Part shown: in pieces, positions 1,170-57,824 of the stretch
How positions within the stretch are numbered: the first letter of the stretch is position 1
Layout: each line of letters opens with the position of its first letter
Assembly: GCA_951406725.2 (NCBI GenBank)
Contig: OX597823.1
Coordinates: 91,326,001 to 91,390,000 of the forward strand
DNA from: Octopus vulgaris
Taxonomy: Eukaryota
DNA: 64,000 nt
Direction of reading: 5' to 3'
Program-made: the position numbers and the translations under genes
The notes under the pieces: model-generated
Databases searched by the model: none
The model's input: only the letters and a program-made list of their open reading frames with translations
What the model was told of the DNA's origin: nothing

Positions 1170-2307
1170 AGTCCACTATTTACATTATTTACATTTGACG
1201 GATATTTGTCCTTGTCTTGTTTGTTAACACAACTTTTCAGCTGATATACTCTCCAGCCTTCTTCAGGTGTCTTGAGGAAATTTTGAATTATTATTATCAT
1301 TATTATTATTCAGGTCACTGCCTGGAATTGAACTTGGAATCTTGGGGTTAACCACTAATCCATATGCCCGTGGGCAATTATGGAATGAATTTTAGGGCTT
1401 ATAAATCTAATATTTTCCTATCTTTCCTTAATATGGGTTCCCATATACTATTCATATATGCACTCGGTCTGCTTAGGAGGTTGTTGTGTCCTAGCATATG
1501 TGCTGCTTCTTTTAGTTTTCGTATTTTCCAGTGGTGTTCTCTATCTATTATTTTAACTTCGTCCAACAAGAGTGGGGTCTCCATTTTTCCATACATGATC
1601 AGCTATACCCAATTTATCAATATCTTCTCGTGTCACAGCTTTGCGATGTTCCTCTACCCTTATTTTGAGGGGGCGGCATGTTTCGCCTTTGTATAACCTA
1701 CCACAGCTGCATAGGATGGAGTACATGCAGTTCATAGTTGTATTCTCTTCTATTGGTGATTTTTTCCAAAGGAGATATTTACGAAGTGTTGCATTACTCT
1801 TGAATACTGTCTTGATGTCATAACTTTTGTATCTTTTCAGAGAGGCCGTTCACATAGTGTAGACAGAATGTAGACAGTTTATCGGTTTTATCCCCTCTTT
1901 TCTTCATAACTGGAGTGGAGAGTATGCTTTTGGGGCAGTTGTTACTCAATAGATTGTTACTGAGCTCGATCATTTCTTCGTGGTGGGTATCATGATCGCT
2001 ACTTATATTCTTTGCTCGATATTTTAGGCACTGAACAATTCCTCTCTTAACACTGTATGAATGGTGGGAATTGAAGTTAAGGTATCGTCCAGTGAAGGTC
2101 GGCTTGTGGTATACAGACATCCTGAAACCAACCCTATGGCTGTGATATAGTGATGACACCTTTATTCTCTGGCCCCACCAGGAAGATATCCAAGTGCTGT
2201 TAGATCAAGTGAACTCAATAAAGCCATCCATAGAGTTCACAATGGAAAAGGAAAAAGACAATCAGCTAGCATTCCTGGACATATTAATAACACGCACCAA
2301 GTATGGA
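1170..2307 (-). mobile_element. Penelope-like retroelement (PLE) fragment: RT thumb, GIY-YIG endonuclease and 3' UTR, with an inverted 5' piece
   Basis: Minus-strand ORFs give SVYHKPTFTGRYLNFNSHH, CMYSILCSCGRLYKGETCRPLKIRVEEH (GIY-YIG) and RKLKEAAHM...ILDL* (stop at 1399). The plus strand at 2140-2307 gives DDTFILWPH...FTMEKEKDNQLAFLDILITR. Confidence 0.85.
1226..1271 (-). ncRNA. Minimal hammerhead ribozyme-like motif in PLE 3' UTR (decayed)
   Basis: Minus strand reads gacac-CTGAAGA-a-ggctg(gagagtatat)cagct-GAAA-ag-TT-gtgtt. Stem I is gacac/gtgtt and stem II is gctg/cagc. Confidence 0.6.
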
Positions 2308-8430: not shown

Positions 8431-9720
8431 TCATCATCATCATCATCATCATCGTTGTTTAACGTCCGCTTTCCATGCTGGCATGGGTTGGACGATTTGA
8501 CTGAGGACTGGCGAACCAGATAGCTGCACCAGGCTCCAATCTTGATTTGGCAGAGTTTCTACAGCTGGATGCCTTTCCTAACGCCAACCACTCCGAGAGT
8601 GTAGTGAGTGCTTTTACATGCCACCAGCACGAGGGCCAGTCAGGCAGTACTGGTAATGGCCATGAAAAAGTCGTGTTTTTTTTTACGTGTCACCTGCACA
8701 CTGGCACAAGTGCCAGTAAGGCGATGCTGGTAATGATCACGCTCAAATGGTGCTTTTTACATGCCACCGGCATGAACGCCAGTTAGCTGCTCTGGCAATA
8801 ATCATGCTCGGATGGTGCTCTTAGTGCTCCACTATCATGGATGCCAGTCATCGAATTTGATTTAGATTCCGATTTCACTTGCTTCAACAGGTCTTTGCAA
8901 GCAGTGTCTATTGAAGGGAAGTTACGCATAAGTGGGCTGATTACACCCCTGGCTTAGGCTACAAGGTTATGGTCTCACTTGGCCTGCCGGGTCTTTTCAA
9001 GCACAGCATATTTCCAAAATTCTTGGTCACTGGTCATTGCCTCGGTGAGGCCTAATGTTTGAAGGTCGTGCTTCACCACCTCATCCCAGATCTTCCTGAG
9101 TCTACCTCTTCCACAGTTTCCCTCAACTGCTAGGGTGTGACACTTTTTCACGCAGCTATCCTCATCCATTCTCGCTACATGACCATCCCAGTGCAGTCGT
9201 CTCTCTTCCACACCACATCTGATGCTTCTTAAGTCCAACTTTTCTCTCAAGGTACTTACACTCTGTTGAGTATGCACACTGACATTACACATACAGTGGA
9301 GCATACTGGCTTCATTCCTTGTGAGCTTACACATATCCTCAGCAGTCACGGCCCATGTTTCACAGCCATATAGCATGGCTATTCGTACACATGCGTTATA
9401 CAGTCTACCTTTTACTCTGAGCGAGAGGCCCTTTGTCACCAGCAGAGGTAAGAGCTCTATGAACTTTGCCCAGGCTATTCTTATTCTAGCAGCTACACTT
9501 TCAGTGCACCCTCCCCTGCTACTGACTTGGTTACCTAGGTAATGGAAGCTATCAACTACTTCTAGTTTTTCTGCTTGGAATGTGACAGAAGTTGTTCTCG
9601 GCCCATTTTCAGTGTTTATTGCTCCTGAGCATCTGCTGCATACCAAAACTTCCCAGTTAGCCTTCCTTTGATATTGCTGCATCTCTTATGTGTCCATAGC
9701 TTACACTGGGTACATCTTAC
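8431..9720 (-). mobile_element. 5'-truncated RTE-clade LINE: ORF2 C-terminus (8975-9682), 3' UTR and (GAT)n tail
   Basis: The ORF has LEVVDSFHYLG, ARIRIAWAKF, KGRLYNACVRIAMLYGCETW, RLHWDGHVARM and GRGRLRKIW. The 3' end reads gcatggaaagcggacgttaaac followed by (gat)n. Confidence 0.9.
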
Positions 9721-11448: not shown

Positions 11449-12490
11449 ACTCATTTATATCTCTCTATATATAAACGGCAGTTTGTCTGTGCGTGCTTCT
11501 GTGTGTCTGTTTTCTCGTACCCTCACCCTGACCACGGCTTTCAACCGATTCTGATGAAACTTGACACACACATAGCCCAATGTCATAATTCAAAACTAAC
11601 GCAGCGAAAATTTTGAAAAGTTCCCCCAGTTCTGAAAAAAATTGATAAATTCGACATGGGGTCGAGAATCATAAACATGAACCACAGACTGTCTAGGGGA
11701 CGCAACTCGAGAATCTAAGCTTTTTTTATGCAACGCATTATCTATGGTAGTTTTCACGACTTGCAATCGATTTTCACCAAACTCATGGTGAAGCTTAATG
11801 TTACCCTAAGAAACTCAATTCTGACTTTAGTTTTCCATGCAATACCTTACCATCAGAAACAATCGATAAAATCATGCCATTTTGGGAAATCGCGTTCAAA
11901 TTCAAGATGACATATTTTCGACAATATCTTTCACAAATTGGCAGGAATCTTTTTTTTTTAAACAACGAGCATCATGTCTGCTCCAAGGAGCTATATAGCC
12001 CTTTTTATTCCAATAGGATACATTATTGGAAAAAATCGGTTAATTTAATCATATGTGGCACACATAGCAAACAAATTTGTGTATTAAACACAAACCAGAC
12101 TGTCTAGGGGACGCAACTTGACCTTTTTAGCTATCGATAATTCGATCCAACCAATTCCTACCAGGAAGAAATTACATTCGAGACTTTACCCCTAACACCG
12201 CCACTTCTGCTAATAGCTGCTGCAGCCGCAAGTTATTCGAATACTTTTTTTGTTTAAACTTTCTTTATAACTACCACCCCAAACGTTTTACCTTCAATTT
12301 TTGACGTACCCTAACGGTCCTCGGACGCTACTTGCAAACTCTTGGTTTATTATAAACCACTTTTGTCGTGTGCATCAAAAAACTTTTCCTTTCGTTTGTT
12401 CAGTTTGATCACTTTTGACTTTTTCGTTGTTGTCACTCACATTGCTGCCAGCTTTTTGGCCGTTTTTGTACATTTTTATACATTTTCGGA

Positions 12491-12612
12491 TACTTACCCC
12501 ACGAGCTCCTTTTTATTACACCTTTACCAAACACATTGCTATCCACCAAAATACTTACCCCACGTGTTCCTTTTTATTACACCTTTGCCAAACACATTGC
12601 TATCCACCAAAA
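12491..12612 (+). repeat. Two tandem 61-bp copies ending at the RepHel start codon
   Basis: tacttaccccacg(a/t)g(c/t)tcctttttattacaccttt(a/g)ccaaacacattgctatccaccaaaa occurs at 12491-12551 and 12552-12612. Confidence 0.9.
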
Positions 12613-13148
12613 TGCCACCCAAGAAGAGAAGGACCCTCCTCAGCCCTCGGACGGCCAAGGCATCGGCTGCTAGGGCTAGAAGGGCACGCGAGACCCACGA
12701 GGAAACCGCCTTGCGCCTCTCGCAAACAGCTTCCCGTTATGCCGCTGCTCAGGCATCTGAAACTACTAGCGACCGTTCTACCCGACTTGCAAGGGTCGCA
12801 GCGTACAGATCTTCCCTCCGCTCGAGGTTGACGAAAGAGCAACAGTCCAGCCAAAACATGCGGGCTTCTTACTGTGCTTCCATCCGCAGAGCTCGCGAGA
12901 ACCCCGAACAAAGGGCCATTCGGAATGCGGCTAACGCCACTAGTACCGCCAGGACACGATCTGTCGAAACCTCACAGCAGAGGAGAACTCGCCAATGTGC
13001 TGACGCCGCAAACAAAGCCATGGCCAAAGCTGCCGAAACACCTCAACAGAGGAGAGCTCGCCAAGCTGCTAACGCCGCAAACAGCCAGGGCTCGATCTGC
13101 CGAAACTCCACACCAACGGACTATTCGGACATCCAGACATGCCATTAG
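12612..13148 (+). CDS. N-terminal part of Helitron RepHel (NLS + 23-aa STPR-like repeats); true frame only to ~13083
   Basis: ATG at 12612 gives MPPKKRR (basic NLS-like), then ETxxxRxxR units with 23-aa periodicity. The repeat continues in the 12874 frame after position 13083. Confidence 0.8.
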   Translation: MPPKKRRTLLSPRTAKASAARARRARETHEETALRLSQTASRYAAAQASETTSDRSTRLARVAAYRSSLRSRLTKEQQSSQNMRASYCASIRRARENPEQRAIRNAANATSTARTRSVETSQQRRTRQCADAANKAMAKAAETPQQRRARQAANAANSQGSICRNSTPTDYSDIQTCH

Positions 13149-16100
13149 CACTGCTTCTGCTAGGGCTTCAGAGGGTGCTGAGGCGAGAGCTGAAAGGCTT
13201 TCAAGGGATGCCACTGCTACCGCTGTCGCACGTGCATCTGAATCTGCTGAGGCACGGTGCACTCGACTTGAGAGTATCAACAAACGTCGGGATATCATTC
13301 GTGGTGTACGTACCCCTGCCCCCGCTTTCTGGTTGTCACTAGCATTCAACTACGACGCCACAATTAACTTCTCCTTGCGTGACGACATCAAGATAGGGTC
13401 AATGACAATTGTATGCCAGTTTTGCAAAGCCAAGAAATGGCCCGGAGAGCCACCTGGTTTGTGCTGCTCTGGTGGCAAAGTGGACCTGCCACCCCTACGG
13501 GAACCACCTCAACCACTGAAGGATCTCGCGGCGGGTTTAACCCCCGATTCGTCACAATTCCTTGAAATAATTCGAAAGTACAACTGCTCATTCCAAATGA
13601 CCTCTTTCGGGGCCAAAATTCCTCCCAGAGAAGGCTGGATGCCTACTTTCAAAGTGCAGGGACAGGTCTACCATCTTATTGGGTCACTTCTGCCAGACGA
13701 GATTCAGCAGTCTTCTTTCCTACAAATATACTTCATTGCCGACTACAACCACCAGGTTGATGCACGCCTTGGAATAATACCGGGTACAAGCTATGTTCCC
13801 CGCAAAGACATTCTTCTCCGTCTCCAAACCATGCTTCATGATATCAACAGCTACGTCTGCAGCTTCAGATATGCCTTGGACAGTGCTCCATCTCCAAACT
13901 TCACCGTTGTCATTGATGCTGATAAACGACCCCACGGGGAGCACGAACGCCGTTTCAACGCACCTGCGTGCAACGAAATTGCCGCAGTCATACACGGAGA
14001 GCAACACAACAGCCGTGACATAATCATCTCCTCCCGTGGTAACAACCTACACAGGATCAGCGAGACTCACAGATCTTATGACGCGCTTCAGTATCCATTG
14101 CTTTTCCCTTATGGGGAAGACGGCTACCACTTCGGAATTCCTTTACGGCAGCCCTTCAATCAAACTACTGCGGCATCAAAGACGGTTTCCTACAGGGCGT
14201 TCTACTCATACCGGTTCATGGTCAGGGAGGGTGAGTTCAACTTATTGCCCCGTTGTCGTCAGCTATTCAACCAGTTCGCCGTCGACATGGCCGCAAAAAT
14301 GGAATCGGAAAGGCTGCTATACATTAAACTTAATCAGACCAAACTTCGCTCCGACTCCTACATTCATCTCCGTGACGGTTTGCAACAAGAAAATGACCCT
14401 CGCAACATCGGCAAGCCATGCATTCTACCCTCCACCTTCACGGGAGGACCGCGATATATGCGTGAAAGGACCCAAGACGCCTTGACCTACGTGCGCATTT
14501 ACGGCCGGCCGGACCTCTTTATCACCTACACGTGCAATCCCAGCTGCGACGAAATCACTCGCGAACGCCTCCCGGGTCAATCTCACACCCATCGACAGGA
14601 CATCGTTGCTTGGGTTTTCCGTCTGAATTTGGGCAAAATGAAGGATTTGATAGTTAAGGGTCAGATTTTCGGGCATGTCAGGTGCCACATGTTTTCGCTC
14701 GAGTGGCAAAAGAGGGGCTTGCCACATGCTCACATCTTAATTTGGCTCACTCATAAAATCGAGACTAATGACATTGACAAATTCATTTCCGCCGAGATTC
14801 CTGACCCCGATGAGGACCCCGGACTCTACGAAATTGTCCGCACTACCATGGTACACGGGCCCTGTGGACCAAATTACGCCAACACACCATGCTACAAAAA
14901 CGGATTAGCCTGCTCAAAGGGATTCCCTAAACGGTTCACTTTGGAGACTCAAACAGGCGGCGATGGGTATCCGCTGTACAAACGAAGGAGTCCAGCCAAT
15001 GGAGGCCGCACGATTACGGTTGGGCGACATCAAGTGGACAACAGCTACATTGTCCCCTACTGTCCTCTCCTGTCGAAGATATTCAAAGCCCACGTCAACG
15101 TTGAGTTCTGCAGTTCCATCAGGTCAATACAATATGTCTGCAAATATATCAACAAAGGCAGCGATGCTGCCATGTTCAGCATCCAGAGGACCACCAGTCG
15201 CGACGAAGTGTCCAACTACTTGGCTGGCCGGTACCTCAGCAGCAACGAAGCGTTTTGGCGCATTTACGGCTTCCCGCTCCATCAGAGACACCCGGCTGTG
15301 GTGCAGCTTGCTGTACACTTGGAAAATGGACAGCGGATTTACTTCACAGAGCAAAGAGCTGTGCAGATAGCCACCAGCCCTAAAGACACAACGTTGACTG
15401 GTTTCTTCAAATTATGCCAACGTGATGACTTCGCTCGAACGCTTTTGTACCCACAGGTCCCATCGTACTTCGTGTGGTCTAAAAACACCTGGGTTCGACG
15501 GAAATCCGGCAAAAACGTCGAAAGCTTCCCAGGCGTCAAGTTTGACTCCTGCCTGGGTCGAGTTTACAACATCCCGCCAAACCAACAAGAATGCTTCTAC
15601 CTCCGTCTCCTTCTACATGAGGTCACTGGTCCAACAGGTTTCGCCAATATACGTACCGTCAATGGGGTTCTGTGCGACACCTTCAGGGAAGCATGTATGA
15701 GACTTGGCCTTCTAGAGGATGACTCCCAGTGGGACGCCACGATGGCAGAGGGTGCTTTACTGCAAACGCATTCGGCCCTACGACATCTTTTCGCAATCCT
15801 TCTTCAAAAATGTCAGCTTAGTGATCCACTAAGTCTCTGGATGAAATACAGGGATGACATGTCGCACGACTTCTTACGTACGGCTCAGCAACACTGCCCT
15901 TCCGCCGAGATCACGTTCACCAACTTCATTTACAATTTTGCGCTCATTCAACTCGAAGACGCTGTCATCGATATGGGTGGGTCTGCTTTAACAGAGTACG
16001 GCCTTCCACCACCCACACGTGAACACGCCAATGTTATGTCTGTTGAATTGTTACGCGAAACTTCCTACTGCATTGAGGAACTGCACCAGTACGTCCAAGA

Positions 16101-17481
16101 TAATGAACCACGGCTGCTTCCAGACCAGCGCATAGCCTACAACACCATCGTAGACTCTGTCAGACAGCAACGTGGGGGGATTTTCTTCCTTGATGCACCC
16201 GGCGGCACTGGCAAAACCTTCGTCACTAAACTAATTCTGGCACAGGTCAGACACAACACGGACATTGCCCTGGCTGTAGCTTCCTCTGGTATCGCGGCCA
16301 CGTTGCTTCCGGGTGGCAGAACCGCCCACTCTGCCTTCAGACTCCCGCTCGATCTGGCAAAGTCCGAGTCACCTATCTGCAACATCGCCAAGAACTCAGA
16401 ACAGGCCGACATTCTGCGCAGATGCAAACTCATCGTATGGGACGAGTGCACTATGGCACACAAAGGCGCCCTTGAGGCACTGGACAGGTCCCTGCAAGAC
16501 ATCAGAGACTCTACGGCCCCCATGGGAGGATTAACTTTACTTCTTTCAGGAGACTTCAGGCAGACTCTACCTGTTATTCCAAAAGGAACCCGTGCCGATG
16601 CCGTGCGCGCGTGCCTTAAGTCGTCAGCTCTTTGGGCACATGTGCGGCCCTTGCACCTCCAAGCTAACATGTGCGCGCAGTTAATTGGTGACAGCGGATC
16701 CGCTGCATTCTCCAGGGACCTCTTATCGCTCGGTGAAAATAGGATGCTGTCTGATGCGGATGGCTACGTTCAATTGGACTCACTTTGCACCATTGTCGAC
16801 ACCCCTGCTATCCTCCGGGACGCTGTCTTCCACGACCTACAAAACAATTTACGCGACCTAAAATGGCTGGCAGGCAGAGCTATTCTCGCACCCAAAAATA
16901 CAACCGTCAACTCCATCAATATCCAGCTACTTGAAGCTATTCCTGGTGATGTCCACGTCTACAAATCTATAGATAGGACAGCAGACCCCGCCCAGCTTGC
17001 CGATTATCCTGTTGAATTCCTGAATTCACTTGAACCGCCAGGCCTGCCACCACACATCCTGAAGTTAAAAGTCGGTGCGCCCATTATGCTCATCAGGAAT
17101 TTGGTTCCACCTAAACAGTGCAACGGCACACGTTTGGTTGTGAAACATTTGGCACCACATTTAATAACGGCCACAATACTTACCGGTTGTGGGAAGGGAG
17201 AGGACGTCTTCATTCCACGGATGCACCTTCAACCGTCGGGCGCTGACCTACCAATCCACTTCAGGCGTTCTCAGTTTCCTGTTAAACTCTGCTTCGCAAT
17301 GTCCATCAATAAATCCCAAGGCCAAACGCTACAAGTCGCTGGGTTACATTTGGGCGAACAGTGCTTCGCCCACGGTCAACTCTACGTGGGCTGTTCACGC
17401 GTTGGGAGGCGCAATGATGTTTTCATGTTTTCGCCCAAACGGACAGCTAGGAACATCGTATATACAGAAGTATTCCAGTGA
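12874..17481 (+). CDS. Helitron RepHel transposase (Zn finger, HUH/Y2 Rep endonuclease, PIF1-family SF1B helicase); biologically meaningful from ~13084
   Basis: Zn finger CQFCKAKKWPGEPPGLCCSGG. Rep motifs PDLFITYTCNP, EWQKRGLPHAHIL and YVCKYINKG. Helicase motifs DAPGGTGKT, GRTAHS, WDECTM, GDFRQTLPV, CNGTRL, AMSINKSQGQTL and HGQLYVGCSRV. Confidence 0.95.
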   Translation: MLPSAELARTPNKGPFGMRLTPLVPPGHDLSKPHSRGELANVLTPQTKPWPKLPKHLNRGELAKLLTPQTARARSAETPHQRTIRTSRHAISTASARASEGAEARAERLSRDATATAVARASESAEARCTRLESINKRRDIIRGVRTPAPAFWLSLAFNYDATINFSLRDDIKIGSMTIVCQFCKAKKWPGEPPGLCCSGGKVDLPPLREPPQPLKDLAAGLTPDSSQFLEIIRKYNCSFQMTSFGAKIPPREGWMPTFKVQGQVYHLIGSLLPDEIQQSSFLQIYFIADYNHQVDARLGIIPGTSYVPRKDILLRLQTMLHDINSYVCSFRYALDSAPSPNFTVVIDADKRPHGEHERRFNAPACNEIAAVIHGEQHNSRDIIISSRGNNLHRISETHRSYDALQYPLLFPYGEDGYHFGIPLRQPFNQTTAASKTVSYRAFYSYRFMVREGEFNLLPRCRQLFNQFAVDMAAKMESERLLYIKLNQTKLRSDSYIHLRDGLQQENDPRNIGKPCILPSTFTGGPRYMRERTQDALTYVRIYGRPDLFITYTCNPSCDEITRERLPGQSHTHRQDIVAWVFRLNLGKMKDLIVKGQIFGHVRCHMFSLEWQKRGLPHAHILIWLTHKIETNDIDKFISAEIPDPDEDPGLYEIVRTTMVHGPCGPNYANTPCYKNGLACSKGFPKRFTLETQTGGDGYPLYKRRSPANGGRTITVGRHQVDNSYIVPYCPLLSKIFKAHVNVEFCSSIRSIQYVCKYINKGSDAAMFSIQRTTSRDEVSNYLAGRYLSSNEAFWRIYGFPLHQRHPAVVQLAVHLENGQRIYFTEQRAVQIATSPKDTTLTGFFKLCQRDDFARTLLYPQVPSYFVWSKNTWVRRKSGKNVESFPGVKFDSCLGRVYNIPPNQQECFYLRLLLHEVTGPTGFANIRTVNGVLCDTFREACMRLGLLEDDSQWDATMAEGALLQTHSALRHLFAILLQKCQLSDPLSLWMKYRDDMSHDFLRTAQQHCPSAEITFTNFIYNFALIQLEDAVIDMGGSALTEYGLPPPTREHANVMSVELLRETSYCIEELHQYVQDNEPRLLPDQRIAYNTIVDSVRQQRGGIFFLDAPGGTGKTFVTKLILAQVRHNTDIALAVASSGIAATLLPGGRTAHSAFRLPLDLAKSESPICNIAKNSEQADILRRCKLIVWDECTMAHKGALEALDRSLQDIRDSTAPMGGLTLLLSGDFRQTLPVIPKGTRADAVRACLKSSALWAHVRPLHLQANMCAQLIGDSGSAAFSRDLLSLGENRMLSDADGYVQLDSLCTIVDTPAILRDAVFHDLQNNLRDLKWLAGRAILAPKNTTVNSINIQLLEAIPGDVHVYKSIDRTADPAQLADYPVEFLNSLEPPGLPPHILKLKVGAPIMLIRNLVPPKQCNGTRLVVKHLAPHLITATILTGCGKGEDVFIPRMHLQPSGADLPIHFRRSQFPVKLCFAMSINKSQGQTLQVAGLHLGEQCFAHGQLYVGCSRVGRRNDVFMFSPKRTARNIVYTEVFQ

Positions 17482-17604
17482 AGACAAGACATTGCAACGT
17501 CCACATGCACCTTCGTTCCCTGGAGGGAAAGGACTACATTGGGATTAGTCGTTGCCTACTAGGGGCTCTTACAGACCCGGGCAACGCCGGGCTATGCTGC
17601 TAGT

Positions 17605-17680
<76 letters not shown>

Positions 17681-17681
17681 A

Positions 17682-17730
<49 letters not shown>

Positions 17731-22139: not shown

Positions 22140-22658
22140 TGCTTCCATTTCTAGCCAAGTGTCTTCCCGACTCCTAGGGCAAAAAAACTCATAGTATACA
22201 TTGGTAGGCCATTAAACTAAACTCACTAGTTCGTTCATTTTTTATTAAGTAAAATTAAAATACATGGGTAGTAATAGTTCTCACATCGACAATGCTCTTC
22301 TCAATACGTATGATGTACCAGTTAAGACAATCTTTTGCACTTCTTGCAGGGATGGTAAGCCAGGGATCATTCTCATATAATTTTCGGTTCCCTCCTTGAT
22401 CATTCCTAATGCTCCTACGATCACTGGTATTGTAACTGCCTTGAGATGCCACATTTTCTCAATTTCAATGAGCAGGTTTTTATATTTTCTGAGCTTGTCA
22501 AACTCTTTCGCCGTGATATTATGATCACAGGGGATGCTCATGTTGATCAATAAGCAAACTTTATTGTTTTGGTCTTTCACAACAATATCCGGTTGATTGG
22601 CTTTGATGGTTCGGTCTGTATGTACTGGAAAGTCCCACAGAATCGTTACATTTTCTTC
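22140..22658 (-). pseudogene. R4/Dong-type non-LTR retrotransposon 3' fragment (restriction-like endonuclease domain), flanked by (AAT)n
   Basis: ILWDFPVHTDRTIKANQPDIVVKD...LINMSIP...EFDKLRKY...IPVIVGALG...QKIVLTGT matches the PD-D..K REL motif. Confidence 0.85.
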
Positions 22659-22660
22659 TA

Positions 22661-22711
<51 letters not shown>

Positions 22712-26035: not shown

Positions 26036-26123
26036 AAGTATAGGAACTCAGAAGTTTGGGTATCCACCCAAGCCTTTTGCAATACCTTTAAGCCAGGATT
26101 TTTTCAGGAATCCTTCATATATA

Positions 26124-26700
26124 TCTTTATATATAAAAGTGAAGTTGTGTGTCTGTCTCCTACGATTTAGATTCCTAACTACTCCCACATTTTGCGGTGC
26201 AGTGTAACCAAAAGCGGGTATCTTATAATCGTGATTCATATTGAGCCCTTCTGGGTATTAGTGCGCGTCTACGATGAGTCTACGATTTAAAAAAAAATTT
26301 ACCATAATTTTTTCCAATTTTTAATGCATTTTTTTGCTATTATATAAGGGAAGTAACTCTCTAAAAATGTCTACGATGAGTCTACGATTTAAAAAAATTT
26401 ACCATCATTTTTTCCAATTTTTAATGCATTCTTTTGCTATTATATAAGGGAAGTAACTCTCTAAAAATGTCTACGATGAGTCTACGATTTAAAAACTCTC
26501 TAAAAATGTATTATTAAATCTCAGATTTAAAAACTCTCTAAAAATGTATTATTAAATCTCAGAACGTAAAAAGCTACAGTAACACCGCCCCCCCCTTTGT
26601 GGTTAGCCATATTAAGATGGCTATTATACTTTACATCTCTAAAAATGCTTATATAGTTATTTCCCTTACAAACCCGAGCAACGCCGGGCGATACTGCTAG
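26124..26700 (+). mobile_element. Non-autonomous Helitron (577 bp) sharing the 3' terminus of the 11460-17603 element
   Basis: Starts A|TCTTTATATATAAAAG. Ends ttacaaacccgagcaacgccgggcgatactgCTAG|T, versus ttacagacccgggcaacgccgggctatgctgCTAG|T in the full element. Internal ~100-bp tandem repeats at 26267-26495. Confidence 0.9.
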
Positions 26701-26959
26701 TATATATATATATTGAATAAACTAGGATACTCAAAGACTGCCTAAAACCTGAATCACTGAATACTTGCCAAGAAATCTTTCTACCTTGCATCCATTTCGA
26801 GTGCTATCTGCTACAAGCATGGGATTCCCCATTCTCTGACTAATCCTGGAAGAGTTCTTATGAATCAAGGCCAGCTCAAGGGATAAGTCTCTTGTTCCTC
26901 CTCTCTCAACCCATAAATAGCTGGTCTCAGGTAGATAACTGATCCTCGCTGATGCCAGA

Positions 26960-29474: not shown

Positions 29475-29497
<23 letters not shown>

Positions 29498-29505
<8 letters not shown>

Positions 29506-30051
29506 TACATAAAATTCGTTCTGTCTGTCTGTGTGAGTGTCTTCTAGGATCTCAGGCATCCTCCATCCGATTGCACTCAAATTTGATATGTAGATACCGA
29601 TGGTATCAGGGCGTATATAAGTCTTGAAAAAATTACAAGAATCGATTCCAGGTGAGAATGCGATCGATAAAGCCATGGGAACGTGCATGTGTATGTGCAA
29701 GTACATCAGCTGTTGCAATCAATACTATGCGTATGTGAGAAAAATACATGTGCAGTTTGCACATAAAAAGCCGGCTGGCTTGAAATAATGCCACAAAATG
29801 CAGTATATTTAAGAGACCAAAAAAGTAAGATGCAAAAGAGATATTTTCTTCAAACTTAGCATGAAGGAAGAAAAGATTATTTGGTTTTTCAAGAAGTTTT
29901 TTTTTTGCCTTAACTTCGTTTAACAAAACCAAAAATTTTATTGAAATAAAAGCATGCTTAATTATTATTTAATGAAAAGAAAACACTGATTGCTTTTTAT
30001 TCAGCAGACATGATTCAGCACCGTCCATTGGGCGGGGGAGGGGGCGTTTTG

Positions 30052-36649: not shown

Positions 36650-38428
36650 ATAAATAATTGACCTTCAATAAATTTCATTCAATGAAATAATTTCCATTAT
36701 TACTAATGACCTTTGCCCATCTATCAGGCAATTTAAATATTCCATCAGCATAAAATTTGACTGATTTTTAAAGAAAAAATTAATCTCGATGCATTTTGAC
36801 TCCATCTAAATCGTTAAATGCGTTTTCATGCAATGAGTTCTGAAGAGACAAAAACAAGTGGTAGTTGGATGGTGCAATATCAGGAGAATATGGTGGAAGG
36901 GGTAAGAGATCCCAGCCAACTTCATGTAACTTTGTCTGGGTAGCCAAAGATACATGTTGTCAAGTATTTTCTTGTTGGAACACTACACCTTTCTTGTTGG
37001 CAATCTTTGGCCTCAATTCTTTAACTTTTTGGTTCAAATTAGCCAGCTGACAACAGTACACACCAGAATTAATGGTCTGGTTTTGTGGGAGAAGCTCATA
37101 ATAAATAATGCCTTTATGATCCCACCAAACTCAAAGCATAGCTTTTGTGGCATGGATATTCATCTTTGGTTGCTGTTTTAGGTGTTCATTACACAAACTC
37201 CAGGATCTTTTTCACACTATGTTTTCATTTACGATCTATTTTTCATCTCTAGTCACAAGTTGTCTAAAAAAAGGCATACTTTCATTCCATTCCAAAAGTA
37301 TATCACAAACGGAATACTGGTCCAAGCAATTCTTTTCTGAGAGTTTGTGAGGAACCCATACATTATAGTGAGAAATGTATCCTAGCTTCACTAGGTGTTC
37401 ACGTGCCATACCTTTAGAAACTTCCAACTCCTCTGCAAGTTCTCTAGTCATGATATTTGAATTTTCTTTGATTTTTGCCTTCAAAACATCTTCATCCAAT
37501 TTTGAAGGTCTTCCACTGTGACTGCCATTTTTCAAGCTAAATTCTCCAGTTTAGAATTTTTCCAACCACCTTTGAACCATTGATTCACCTACAGCGTCAT
37601 CATCACCATAAACCTCTCAAATGCTTTTGCAAGTCTTTGCAGCATTTTCTCCTTTAAGAAAAGACTTACAATGCGAATATGAAATTTTTGGTTGTCTATT
37701 TTGAATGTCAATAAAAAACGTAACCAGAATGAAAGATAAATCTGTTTTTAATCAGGAACAAAGATGAGATGCACTACCATTTCAAATAATGCCAAAGTTT
37801 TAACTACGAGGGTAAATCAAAAATTAATGCCATTTTGTTTAGGACAGGTATAATTACCAACACAAGAACATGTATGATACACCAAAATGAAGTTTATTAT
37901 GAGTTTAGTGTTTTTCCTTTTGACAAGAAGTCGACCAGAATGATACCTTGAGCATCCCAAAAAACATGATTTTTCCACCTGACTTTGTGCCTTGAATATT
38001 TTCGGTGGTGATGATGTAGAGTGGTGCCATTCCATTGACTGCCTCTTTGATTCCAGTTCATAATGATGAAATTATGTTTCATCACCTGTTATGAGACTTC
38101 GAAAGGTGTTGTCTCTTTCACTTTGTAGTGAAGAAGTGGCTCAAAGAACAGTCAACAGAATTTTACAGAGCAGGGATACATGCTCTCATTTGAAGGTGGA
38201 ATATTGCTATTGAGAGAGATAGTTACTATGTTAAGAAGTTGGGATGTGACCCACAGAGTACCAGCTTCATTTTGATGTATGAAACATGTTCCTGTGTTGG
38301 TAATTATACCTGTCCTAAACAAAATGGCATTAAGTTTTGAATCATCCTTGTATTTTACCTTTCAGGTGCGTTCAATGAAGTGTTAAAACATTTAGCTTAA
38401 AATGCTCAGAACTTTCCGGACAACCTAA
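36650..38428 (-). mobile_element. Decayed mariner (DD34D) element, ~1.25 kb plus a nested 544-bp insert
   Basis: 5' TIR ta-ttaggttgtccggaaagttc (38409-38430, minus strand). Pseudo-ORF ~37700 to 36675 has SGRPSKLD, VWVPHKL, LVTRDEK, PPYSPDIAPSNYHLF and LPDRWAKVISNNGNYFIE*. Confidence 0.9.
37807..38350. mobile_element. mariner-derived MITE with ~86-bp TIRs, nested in the 5' UTR of the 36650-38428 mariner
   Basis: ta-cgagggtaaatcaaaaattaatgccattttgtttaggacagg... and ...cctgtcctaaacaaaatggcattaagttttgaatcatccttg-ta. Internal transposase scraps lie on both strands. Confidence 0.9.
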
Positions 38429-55404: not shown

Positions 55405-55908
55405 GGTCATTGAAAATGAGAAAGCAACCATACTATGGGATATGCGAATACATACAGATAGAGAAATTAAGACTAATAGGCCAGATATAGTTGTCAGAGA
55501 TCATGAAGGAAAAAAATGCTTTCTAATTGATGTATCAATACTAACAGATGACAATGTTTCTCTAAAAGAAATGGAGAAACTTTCAAAATACAAAGATCTG
55601 GAAATAGAGGTAACTCAAATGTGGAATCTAAAAACAGAAACAATTCCTAATACACCACGGTATTTTTATCATATACTTATGTATGTGTGTGTGTGTGTGT
55701 TTGTGTGCATAATACATAACAAAAACACCAGGACTAACTAATATATATAACATACAGAAAATAGCACTACTAGGCACCGCACACATCCTACTTAAAGCAC
55801 TCTCAATGCAGTAACAATAAGAGCATCACAACAAACCACAGTACATACCCACAGCATACAGAGCTGCACTCATTAGTGCAGTGAAAGCACATTATAAAAA
55901 TAAGACTA

Positions 55909-55966
<58 letters not shown>

Positions 55967-56930
55967 TTCATAATAATAATAATAATAATAATAATGATAA
56001 TAATAACAATAATATTTCAGACAGATTGTGTAATTGAACCCTGTCAGCAGATATTGTCATATTAAATAAGAGAGAGACAAATACTGTCAGATCATTGATG
56101 TAGCCATACCAAATGACATGAATGTTGTGAGTAAAGAGGTTGAAAAAAATCACCAAGTACTCCGAATTGAAAGTGGAAATGGCAAGACTGTATGGAATGT
56201 GAGAGGGTAATGTAAAAGTGATACCAGTGGTGATTGGAGCTTTGGGCTCAATCTCATTGAAACTTCAAGACTTCTTAAGGCAACTGGAAATCCCATGCAA
56301 GATTGATGTCTTGCAAAAAGCAGCCTTATTGGGTACGGCGCACATCTTAAGGAAAGTATCCTCTGTCTGAGGTCCTTGTTGGTGATTTGACAGATGACTA
56401 AAGACTGGTGCATTGCTATCTTACACTGTGTTACGAAGGAATAATAATAATAATAATAATAATAATAGCAAAAGTAATAATGGAATTTGGAATCAAGAAG
56501 TGCGGAGTAGTCTACCTAAAAAGAAGCAAGGTACAGTCCCTAGCAGGGATAGAATTACTGAATAGAGATTTGATTAGAGTGCAGTGAGTTAATGGAAAAG
56601 AAAATGAAAGAACAACTGAGGACGGAGTATTTCCGAAGACTGAAGTTGGTGTTACAATCAAAATTTTACTGGATGGAATGAAATCCAAGCAGTTAATATG
56701 AGGGCGAAAGCATCACTTCGGTATGGAGCAGGAATTATTAAATGGAAAACGAGAGAAGTGAAGAAATTGGATACCAAGACCAGAACAATGTTGACAGTAC
56801 ATGGAGCCTTCCACCCTAAGAGTGACACTGATAGATTGTACTTGTCCAGAGGAAAGGGTGGAAGAGGTTTGATCAGTTGTTTGGACTGTATTGAAGCAGA
56901 GGAAATCAGCCTAGGGTTGTATATAAAAAA
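55405..56930 (+). pseudogene. Three successive R4/Dong-type fragments (55405-55912, 56015-56440, 56478-56930) separated by (AAT)n
   Basis: TILWDMRIHTDREIKTNRPDIVV...LIDVSI...EMEKLSKYKDL; IDVAIPND...IPVVIGALG...LQKAALLGTAHILRKV; EFGIKKC, LRYGAGIIKW...HGAFHPKSDTDRLYLSRGKGGRGL. Confidence 0.85.
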
Positions 56931-57824
56931 TGATGATTTTGATAGTGATGATGATGATGATGATAATGATGATAATGAAGATGATGAAAATGTTGATAAA
57001 GGTGATAAGCCCAGTCATTTATGTGGGGGCAGCAAGTCAATCACATAAACCCCTTCCCCCCAGTGCCCAGCTGGTACTTTATTATATTTACCCTGAGAGG
57101 ACGAAAGGTGAAGTTGACTTCAGTGAGATTTGAACTCAGAATATAATGAGTTTGAGGAAGAAATGGCATTTTGTACGATGTGCTAACGACTCTACAAGCT
57201 CACTGCTATAACAACAACAACAACAACAACATCAACAACAAAAACAACAACAATAATAATAACAACAACAACAACAACAACAACAATAAAAAATTAAAAT
57301 TATAACAAAAACAAAAAAAATAATGATAATTATTATTATTATAACAATGGTGGCAATGATAACGACAATGATTACAATTATTATGATGTTGATGATGATG
57401 ATGACGATGATAATCACAGCAACAATGACAATAAAGTCAGTGATGATGATGGCGACAATGGTAGTGATGGTGGTGATGATGACAACCACATTAACAAAAA
57501 TGATGATGGTGATGGTGATGCTGGTGAACATTAACCCTGATGGTGATAATGATTTTGGGGGCATAACAATGTTGATGGTTATACTACAAACGATACAACC
57601 ACCAGTAATGGTGATTTTAACACTGACGATCTTTCAGTGATTAATTAACACAAACATCAAAGTGGAAAGAGTTAGTCATGACACACATGCATATAACTGT
57701 GCCATTAGATAGTAGAGATTAGCAGAGAATGGGAAGAAAAATCACAATGAAAAAGCCCTGAAATCAACCAATAATATGTAAATGCAGCATGTGTTATCTG
57801 AGGGACAAAACGTTGAAACACGTC

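Follow-up and report, generated by a model that had tools for sequence, protein, structure and literature searches.

A known system close to the element reported here is Helraiser/Helibat1, a bat Helitron1 (PDB 7lcc; PMC4778049) that has a 5' TC terminus, a 3' CTAG terminus with a subterminal hairpin and an AT target, and whose single intronless transposase of 1,496 aa carries a basic N-terminus, a zinc-finger-like motif, an HUH Rep domain and an SF1 helicase. The 5' TC terminus is part of the definition of Helitron1 (HLE1), and STPR repeats occur almost only in HLE1 (PMC11417382). In Octopus vulgaris, 84 Helitron families make up 1.02% of the genome, and 8 families are recently active, with 178 insertions averaging 4.3 kb (765,802 bp); recently active here means long copies at most 2% from their consensus, and the word "horizontal" appears nowhere in the main text of that study (Bonar et al. 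2026, PMC13282606). The copy described below fits this definition by description rather than by comparison with the consensus sequences, and is a clean case of a known class already counted in O. vulgaris, a young Helitron family in what is, judging by its nearest relatives and by the make-up of the window, probably an octopus-like genome. We consider it likely to be a dead Helitron1 copy left by a burst about 1-3 million years ago, from a multi-copy family of a GC-rich lineage that has long been with cephalopods.

The window, that is, the whole stretch of 64,000 nucleotides analysed, contains a real, full-length canonical HLE1 of 6,144 bp with a frameshifted transposase gene (11460..17603, plus strand, as are all features below), identified by its junctions, its domains and its match to Helraiser (E = 2e-259). 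At 11459/11460 the junction is A|TC and at 17603/17604 it is CTAG|T, which places the insertion point between A and T with no target duplication, as read from the filled rather than the empty site. Together with the subterminal hairpin, they bear out the perfect termini and AT target of the preliminary description. The 5' terminal and untranslated region (11460..12611; GC 0.38, CpG o/e 1.0) starts with TC and includes a 37-bp direct repeat with copies at 11685 and 12096 and a 61-bp tandem duplication at 12490-12611; its first part is common to abundant deletion derivatives, as seen in the contig depth table and the contig joints. The 3' terminal signal (17576..17603) comprises a GC hairpin with a 5-bp stem (17576-17591), located 12 nt before the element end compared with 11 nt in Helraiser, and CTAG at 17600-17603. 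The folding energy of the hairpin alone is unremarkable (z = -0.62; 54 of 200 shuffles fold as well), and the hairpin was called because of its position and its occurrence in a second element.

The 5' TC, the short 3' hairpin followed by CTRR, the A|T target and the RepHel transposase are all HLE1 features, and a placement in HLE1 rather than Helitron2/Helentron (HLE2) is indirectly suggested by the match to Helraiser (E = 2e-259) and by the STPR repeats, the trees being without HLE2 rows. The target, A|T rather than T|T, does not fit HLE2. Two further HLE2 traits were looked for: no endonuclease family is found among the Pfam matches to the element, and of 67 repeat pairs the 25 longest include no terminal inverted repeat.

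The transposase gene begins at ATG 12612. Its N-terminal part (12612..13080) encodes a basic start, MPPKKRR, which is a predicted nuclear localisation signal, and 69-nt STPR repeats (PF21107, E = 1e-11; repeat spacing 69, 69 and 67). If continued, this frame meets a stop at 13148. Two bases are missing at 13080..13081 that are present in contigs of all four sequencing runs compared, and the Octopus sinensis homologue P0406 aligns to the N-terminal part and then to the next frame. From ATG to TGA the gene spans 4,870 nt here; restoring the missing bases brings it to 4,872 nt, or 1,624 codons. An intron or a programmed frameshift at 13080 was ruled out because the family majority sequence simply has two more bases there. 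The Rep-helicase frame that follows (13081..17481, with TGA at 17479-17481) runs for 1,466 stop-free codons from 13081 to 17478 (4.4 kb) and matches Helitron_like_N, PIF1 and Pif1_2B (PF14214, PF05970 and PF21530), all above Pfam cut-offs. Full-length homologues cover 98-100% of residues 165-1549, so no intron is required. The 4.4 kb without stop or intron noted earlier is thus upheld for 13081-17478; the copy is not "nearly intact", as had also been claimed, since the stop-free frame is without a proper start and the gene begins at ATG 12612 with a frameshift near 13080.

Within the Rep-helicase frame lie a Cys-rich zinc-finger-like motif (13414-13476), the HUH histidines (14725 and 14731), the catalytic tyrosines (15133 and 15145), the Walker A lysine (16213) and the motif VI arginine (17398) of the helicase. 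All six residues tested in Helraiser (H593, H595, Y727, Y731, K1068 and R1457) have a counterpart in the element, that of R1457 being assigned by motif and offset. The family differs from Helraiser in its longer N-terminus with STPR repeats (1,623 versus 1,496 aa) and has unusual residues at 39 columns that are at least 90% conserved in 80 homologues, for example a cysteine in place of tryptophan in the first Rep motif. Unlike Helraiser, the copy in the window is frameshifted. An unbroken start-to-stop frame, a criterion for autonomy, is found in the family majority and is broken in the present copy. As assembled, the present copy cannot make the full protein, but its two intact ends could still allow mobilisation in trans.

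The age of the copy was estimated against the family. The runs compared (X1, X3, X12 and X15; 4 of 20 holders, with four organism codes) have one majority sequence in common, in which the frame is kept and encodes 1,623 aa. The present copy differs from this majority by 20 substitutions in 4,372 nt (0.43-0.46% over the coding region), and two individual contigs (4,374 and 4,714 nt) show 20 changed letters and 2 gaps relative to the element. Among the coding substitutions listed, 16 of 21 are nonsynonymous, compared with 76.5% expected under neutrality, and the dN/dS of the present copy is 0.98; a value of 0.2 is rejected (P = 0.0007) and one of 0.5 is not (P = 0.13). No CpG hypermutation is seen in the present copy (3 of 24 changes versus 1.5 expected, P = 0.19). 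Given 20 substitutions in 4,372 nt and a dN/dS of about 1, the copy probably no longer functions and dates from about 1-3 million years ago, in support of the relatively recent insertion proposed earlier.

One might instead suppose that the locus is intact and functional and that the frameshift and substitutions are assembly errors, since the gap lies within a short dinucleotide context and none of the runs compared is known to derive from the assembled individual. However, there are 47 substitutions against the X1 majority, many of them transversions (18 of the 39 rows used); their codon spectrum is neutral and four fall on conserved residues, which looks like mutation after insertion. These four changes, at columns with at least 90% conservation, are private to the present copy. 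Moreover, repair of the gap alone would leave an R-to-W change in the Rep domain and an R-to-C change in a helicase motif, at sites that are both 100% conserved in the 80 homologues. Assembly error is therefore very improbable.

The coding region is, as had been observed, richer in GC and CpG than its surroundings: the Rep-helicase frame has GC 0.509 and CpG o/e 0.88 versus 0.351-0.356 and 0.33-0.41 in the flanks, and across 245 overlapping 4.4-kb windows outside the element GC never rises above 0.415, nor CpG o/e above 0.69. Its GC of about 0.51 and GC3 of 0.56 are also above those of all 24 related Helitron frames (GC3 maximum 0.50), a set that does not include DNA of the cephalopod relatives. 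The CpG o/e is matched or topped by 11 of these 24 frames, and CpG retention is thus ordinary for Helitrons. Octopus transposons bear little methylation (PMC9476566), and, as a modest general point, where transposons are barely methylated a contrast in GC and CpG is in itself weak grounds for proposing horizontal transfer.

The composition of this frame inside a window of GC 0.35, the single young majority sequence and an 83% identical Logan protein without an assigned host (P0141) could nevertheless be read as signs of a recent acquisition of the family from an unrelated animal of higher GC, all the more as Helitron transfers among animals are documented (PMC12001565). Against this, no named non-cephalopod protein exceeds 60% identity in its overall best alignment among the matches listed (3 x 120), the exception to this ceiling being one 173-residue segment at 65%. 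Nothing exceeds 63% among the best 150 matches in the representative library. In metagenome contigs, 67 loci have best segments of 35-63% identity, and the best DNA matches there are 65-69% over 233-668 nt. Among viral contigs, none of 11 pattern matches was confirmed; all 326 matches in phage records are below 60% identity, none covering 80% of the query, and the five listed are helicase-only at 26-28%. Published transfer cases show 81-100% DNA identity (PMC12001565). One of these, Heli1Xen1, a horizontally transferred Helitron1, resembles the present family in having few autonomous and many non-autonomous copies, but there the case for transfer is built on DNA identities of 81-100% among distant vertebrates, and no such named distant holder is found here. 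The nearest named relatives of the window protein are cephalopod, form one supported group within which it nests, and share its GC-rich signature; recent transfer from an unrelated animal, left as an option in the preliminary description, is thus unsupported by these comparisons, and we regard it as improbable. Because the closest named relatives are from octopus and cuttlefish, the high GC more likely reflects a cephalopod Helitron lineage than recent arrival from some unrelated animal.

That lineage is seen in the protein tree. The window protein, P0141 and the Sepia, O. sinensis and O. bimaculoides proteins form a group with support of 98/94 among 29 rows and an SH-aLRT of 95 in a 59-row tree. 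In an alignment of 551 proteins, ranks 2-11 of the best 21-22 identities are all cephalopod-labelled (62-69%). No named Octopus protein above 70% identity occurs among the matches listed, though the family is abundant. In how well they match the GC-rich amino-acid index of the window protein, 10 of 11 group members beat all but 0-9 of 236 other Helitron proteins. Higher identity by itself accounts for part of this shared index. The unusual residues of the window family were considered as a marker of the cephalopod group and add little, being found in P0141 at 11 of 15 positions, in Sepia at 3 of 15 and in O. sinensis at 3 of 21.

The nearest named relative in the tree is Sepia pharaonis CAE1297012.1 (P0159; support 94/91 and 99), which is 67% identical; it differs in being a 590-aa fragment altered at conserved positions, 0.58-0.64 substitutions per site away. 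Cluster P0215 of O. sinensis and O. vulgaris (9 proteins, e.g. XP_029642741.1, XP_029636936.1 and CAI9717559.1) has the MPPKKR start, STPR repeats, the Rep domain, the tree group and the GC-rich index in common with the window family; at 59-68% identity in the Rep-helicase part (tblastn), it is a sister rather than an identical family. These comparisons suggest that octopus and cuttlefish Helitrons form one GC-rich lineage, a modest addition to what is known; no title on such a lineage appears in the part of the literature searched. Long residence of the lineage in cephalopods is likely. The window family lies nearer to the Sepia element than it does to either of the Octopus families, and a tree constrained to keep the Octopus rows in one group is rejected (p-AU = 2.7e-5) with a cephalopod sampling of three species, so vertical descent requires old paralogous lineages. 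Among the outcomes that the preliminary description named as refuting it is a phylogeny that follows the species tree; this is borne out only by half, as the protein does nest among cephalopods, yet its tree departs from that of the species. This conflict fits old paralogous lineages and transfer among cephalopods equally well.

Transfer among cephalopods is a possible alternative, since the tree departs from the species and four coded organisms have the sequence in common. On this reading, the family would have passed laterally between cephalopods, or come back into them from a marine carrier outside the sampling, before bursts in several hosts during the past few million years. The tree conflict agrees with this, as do four organism codes in 8 studies that contain 0.54-0.78 of the element words, and the coding majorities of the four runs, which are nearly letter-identical. 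The derivative profile of X15 is distinct, with a peak at 15362-15773 that is missing in X12, and the X1 and X3 contigs of 4.4-4.7 kb show no branching subfamilies. However, a burst predating recent species splits would leave the runs with one and the same majority (in PMC13669787, sibling octopus species diverged 0.4-1.3 million years ago), and the four organism labels may be siblings or host-derived samples. Copies diverged by 5-9% are also present, in six low-depth coding-region contigs listed, consistent with older copies, and 0.58-0.64 substitutions per site to the Sepia protein is too distant for a recent direct transfer. We therefore hold such sideways movement to be unlikely. A bolder version, in which one master of the GC-rich cephalopod lineage swept several hosts by transfer or introgression, left distinct deletion families in each and is still active, is slightly more doubtful still; if true, the element would be a natural candidate for a gene-insertion tool native to cephalopods.

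In the reading we prefer, a burst within a long-resident lineage, the family is probably represented by many copies. The depth of majority over minor contigs across the same stretch is about 33-fold in X12 and 50-fold in X15, a rough hint that the family has tens of copies or more; summed contig depth was set aside, since such depth is no copy number. The private letters of the present copy are mostly missing from the four runs; contigs drop rare variants, so this was not taken as an empty site. As for the still active copies that the preliminary description allowed for, the majority sequence keeps its frame unbroken, but no single intact family copy is seen in the contigs of the four runs and the present one is broken. 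No RNA row occurs among the holders listed (RNA status being guessed for several), which carries no weight either way. By analogy with Helraiser (PMC4778049), an intact family member would have made a single 1,623-aa protein. Its HUH nuclease would introduce a nick at the 5' TC end and its Pif1 helicase would separate the strand; a pause at the hairpin would lead the enzyme to cut at CTAG, after which the freed circle would integrate at an AT site. The many internally deleted derivatives with both element ends, evident from contig joints, were likely moved by the same enzyme. If intact copies survive, their insertion polymorphisms could serve as population markers and the copies themselves as a possible native cephalopod transposon tool.

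A domesticated host gene or a contaminant might also be suspected, as the open frame is long and its composition differs from that of the flanks. The exact transposon junctions within host-like microsatellite DNA, the dN/dS of about 1, the many deletion derivatives with the same ends and the presence, 9 kb away, of another Helitron whose 3' end is similar largely refute this already, and we give it almost no credence. Elsewhere in the window, five relic frames have no Pfam match (among six extra queries, the N-terminal frame matched STPRs). Not every other element is fragmentary, as had been stated: a complete non-autonomous Helitron of 577 bp (26124..26700; CpG o/e 1.2) has A|TC and CTAG|T junctions, a 5' end different from that of the large element, and a final 36 nt that are 89% like the final 36 nt of the large element.

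The element at 11460-17603 (+) spans 6,144 bp, begins with TC preceded by A and ends in CTAG followed by T, as the preliminary description had it in claiming perfect termini and an AT target. A distance of 12 nt separates a GC stem of 5 bp from the 3' terminus. By its ends, its target and its STPR repeats the element agrees with the definition of HLE1 (Helitron1) given in PMC11417382; it is a canonical Helitron1. The stop-free Rep-helicase frame of 4.4 kb is also confirmed: 1,466 codons run from 13081 to the TGA at 17479-17481 and hold the Pfam domains Helitron_like_N (E = 2e-49), PIF1 (6e-62) and Pif1_2B (3e-15). The frame matches the structure (PDB 7lcc) of the transposase of Helraiser, the bat Helitron1, at E = 2e-259, and the element has counterparts for 6/6 Helraiser residues whose mutation is reported to abolish activity (PMC4778049). 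It is scarcely conceivable that the locus is a gene or a contaminant.

Near-intactness, in contrast, did not survive closer inspection. The gene starts at ATG 12612, with a protein beginning MPPKKRR, and this frame, which reaches a stop at 13148, differs from that of 13081. The alignment with an O. sinensis homologue switches frame, its N-terminal part lying in one and the remainder in the other, and the 69-nt STPR repeats are spaced successively by 69, 69 and 67. Contigs from all four sequencing runs examined (X1, X3, X12 and X15) carry two extra bases behind 13080, with which the frame counts 1,624 codons. The window copy, missing these bases, is broken and probably dead; that its broken state is an assembly error is very improbable.

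Single contigs of X1 and X3 (4,374 and 4,714 nt) lie 20 letters and 2 gaps apart from the window, and the letters of X12 and X15 agree with them except at 12997, a family polymorphism. The distance of the window copy to this family majority is 0.43-0.46%, in keeping with the relatively recent insertion proposed before; the copy is young. By the rate that PMC13282606 implies (0.09 for 25 million years) this distance corresponds to 1.2-1.3 million years, and by the one applied in PMC13669787 to 1.8-1.9 million generations, so that borrowed octopus rates suggest an age of about 1-3 million years. Eight recently active Helitron families (178 insertions, mean 4.3 kb) and a Helitron expansion at distance 0.09 are reported in O. 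vulgaris (Bonar et al. 2026, PMC13282606), and given the former a young long copy is expected. Among the substitutions listed (40 of 61 rows, 39 used, with 17220 dropped as absent from X1 and X3), 16 of 21 coding changes alter the amino acid, in agreement with the nonsynonymous share of 76.5% predicted under neutrality (dN/dS 0.98). The window protein deviates at 43 of the 475 columns at least 90% conserved (80 of the best 120 full-length homologues); four deviations are private to this copy, two of them at 100% conserved columns. At some nearly invariant positions the family majority itself carries unusual residues (14545 C for W, 14893 Y for M, 15046 Y for W, 15130 Q for K, 15574 P for H), shared by P0141, a Logan protein, at 4/4 positions it covers; they may mark a fast-evolving Rep domain.

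Element words are present at 0.54-0.78 in 20 of the 24 runs listed (8 studies, four organism codes), and contigs from four positive runs, one per organism code, were compared with the window. Contig depth climbs by orders of magnitude toward both element ends and joints in X15 skip 3.7-5.7 kb of the element; internally deleted derivatives therefore exist. In X15 alone, contig depth peaks strongly inside the element at 15362-15773 and a joint links 11795 to 15523; both are read as marking a derivative family that has amplified in the organism of that run. Among the low-depth contigs listed, six from the coding region have diverged by 5-9% and point to older copies. The majority-to-minor contig ratio of 33-50, contig depth being no copy number, hints at tens of copies or more.

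The coding region had been called compositionally foreign. Its enrichment is real, with GC of 0.509 and CpG o/e of 0.88 against about 0.35 and 0.33-0.41 in the flanks, exceeding all 245 same-length windows outside the element, and its GC and GC3 (0.563) lie above 24/24 related frames (from 67 metagenome loci, minimum length 1.8 kb), so the high GC is a true oddity. CpG o/e is equal or greater in 11 of these 24 frames and in the short Helitron at 26124-26700, and little methylation is reported on octopus transposons (PMC9476566); CpG retention is therefore no sign of foreign origin. No clear CpG hypermutation was found among the changes of the window copy. At the protein level, the index of GC-rich amino acids in 10 of 11 cephalopod-group members is within 0.021 of the window's, and the median of 236 other Helitron proteins is 0.076 below it. 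The signature thus appears common to the cephalopod group; by our estimate higher identity accounts for part of the shared index, not most.

The best full-length protein match is 58% identical (among the best 120 of 2,081); among shorter proteins (best 120 of 2,431) P0141 reaches 83%, Sepia pharaonis 67%, O. sinensis 66% and O. bimaculoides 62%, and a further protein search gave the same top three by identity. The O. sinensis match represents a second family of 9 proteins, O. vulgaris included. Rep-region trees group the window with these four and no others (SH-aLRT 95 in a 59-row tree, with four low-coverage rows removed and the protein P0020 excluded; 98/94 in a 29-row tree; 93 in a 14-row quick tree, with 99 for an inner four-row group). 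Within the group Sepia is nearer to the window than either Octopus family, and a constraint uniting the Octopus rows, chosen after the first trees were seen, is rejected (p-AU 2.7e-5). Since 0.58-0.64 substitutions per site separate the window protein from that of Sepia and the coleoids are reported to be about 270 million years old (PMC8967140), several old paralogous lineages are the simplest reading of the tree. With three cephalopod species sampled, an old transfer between cephalopods might also underlie this arrangement; transfer of the family among cephalopods we regard as unlikely overall. Recent transfer from an unrelated animal is less credible still: Helitron transfers described in PMC12001565 show 81-100% DNA identity between distant hosts, and no named distant host with such identity to the element emerged in this analysis. 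The titles listed in literature searches, with most subscription papers outside their scope, included none on cephalopod Helitron transfer or lineage. We consider it likely that the element is a young, probably dead Helitron1 whose family amplified recently within a cephalopod-associated lineage.

The Helitron at 26124-26700 (+) is a complete non-autonomous element of 577 bp (A|TC and CTAG|T junctions, internal tandem repeats, CpG o/e 1.2). Its terminal 36 nt are 89% like those of the big element and its 5' end is unlike; it might be mobilised by the same transposase or by a sister one. TA-rich tracts flank both Helitrons (11450-11459, 17604-17730, 26114-26123, 26701-26712) and loose ends in X3 show (TA)n ahead of other copies; a preference for TA microsatellites is possible. 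Behind a (TA)n tract, about 29497-29790 (+) presumably resembles a Helitron 5' region; a pattern search found no matching hairpin there. Short relic frames at 1818-2204 (-), 8975-9685 (-), 22281-22661 (-), 37236-37550 (-), 55406-55741 (+) and 56644-57048 (+) resemble what we take to be LINE, Penelope-type and mariner pieces; a Pfam scan of five of the six gave no match, and their CpG o/e is 0.2-0.6. In the big element, a 61-bp tandem duplication (12490-12611, 95% alike) ends immediately upstream of the ATG. The 5' region holds two copies of a direct repeat of 37 bp, at 11685 and 12096.
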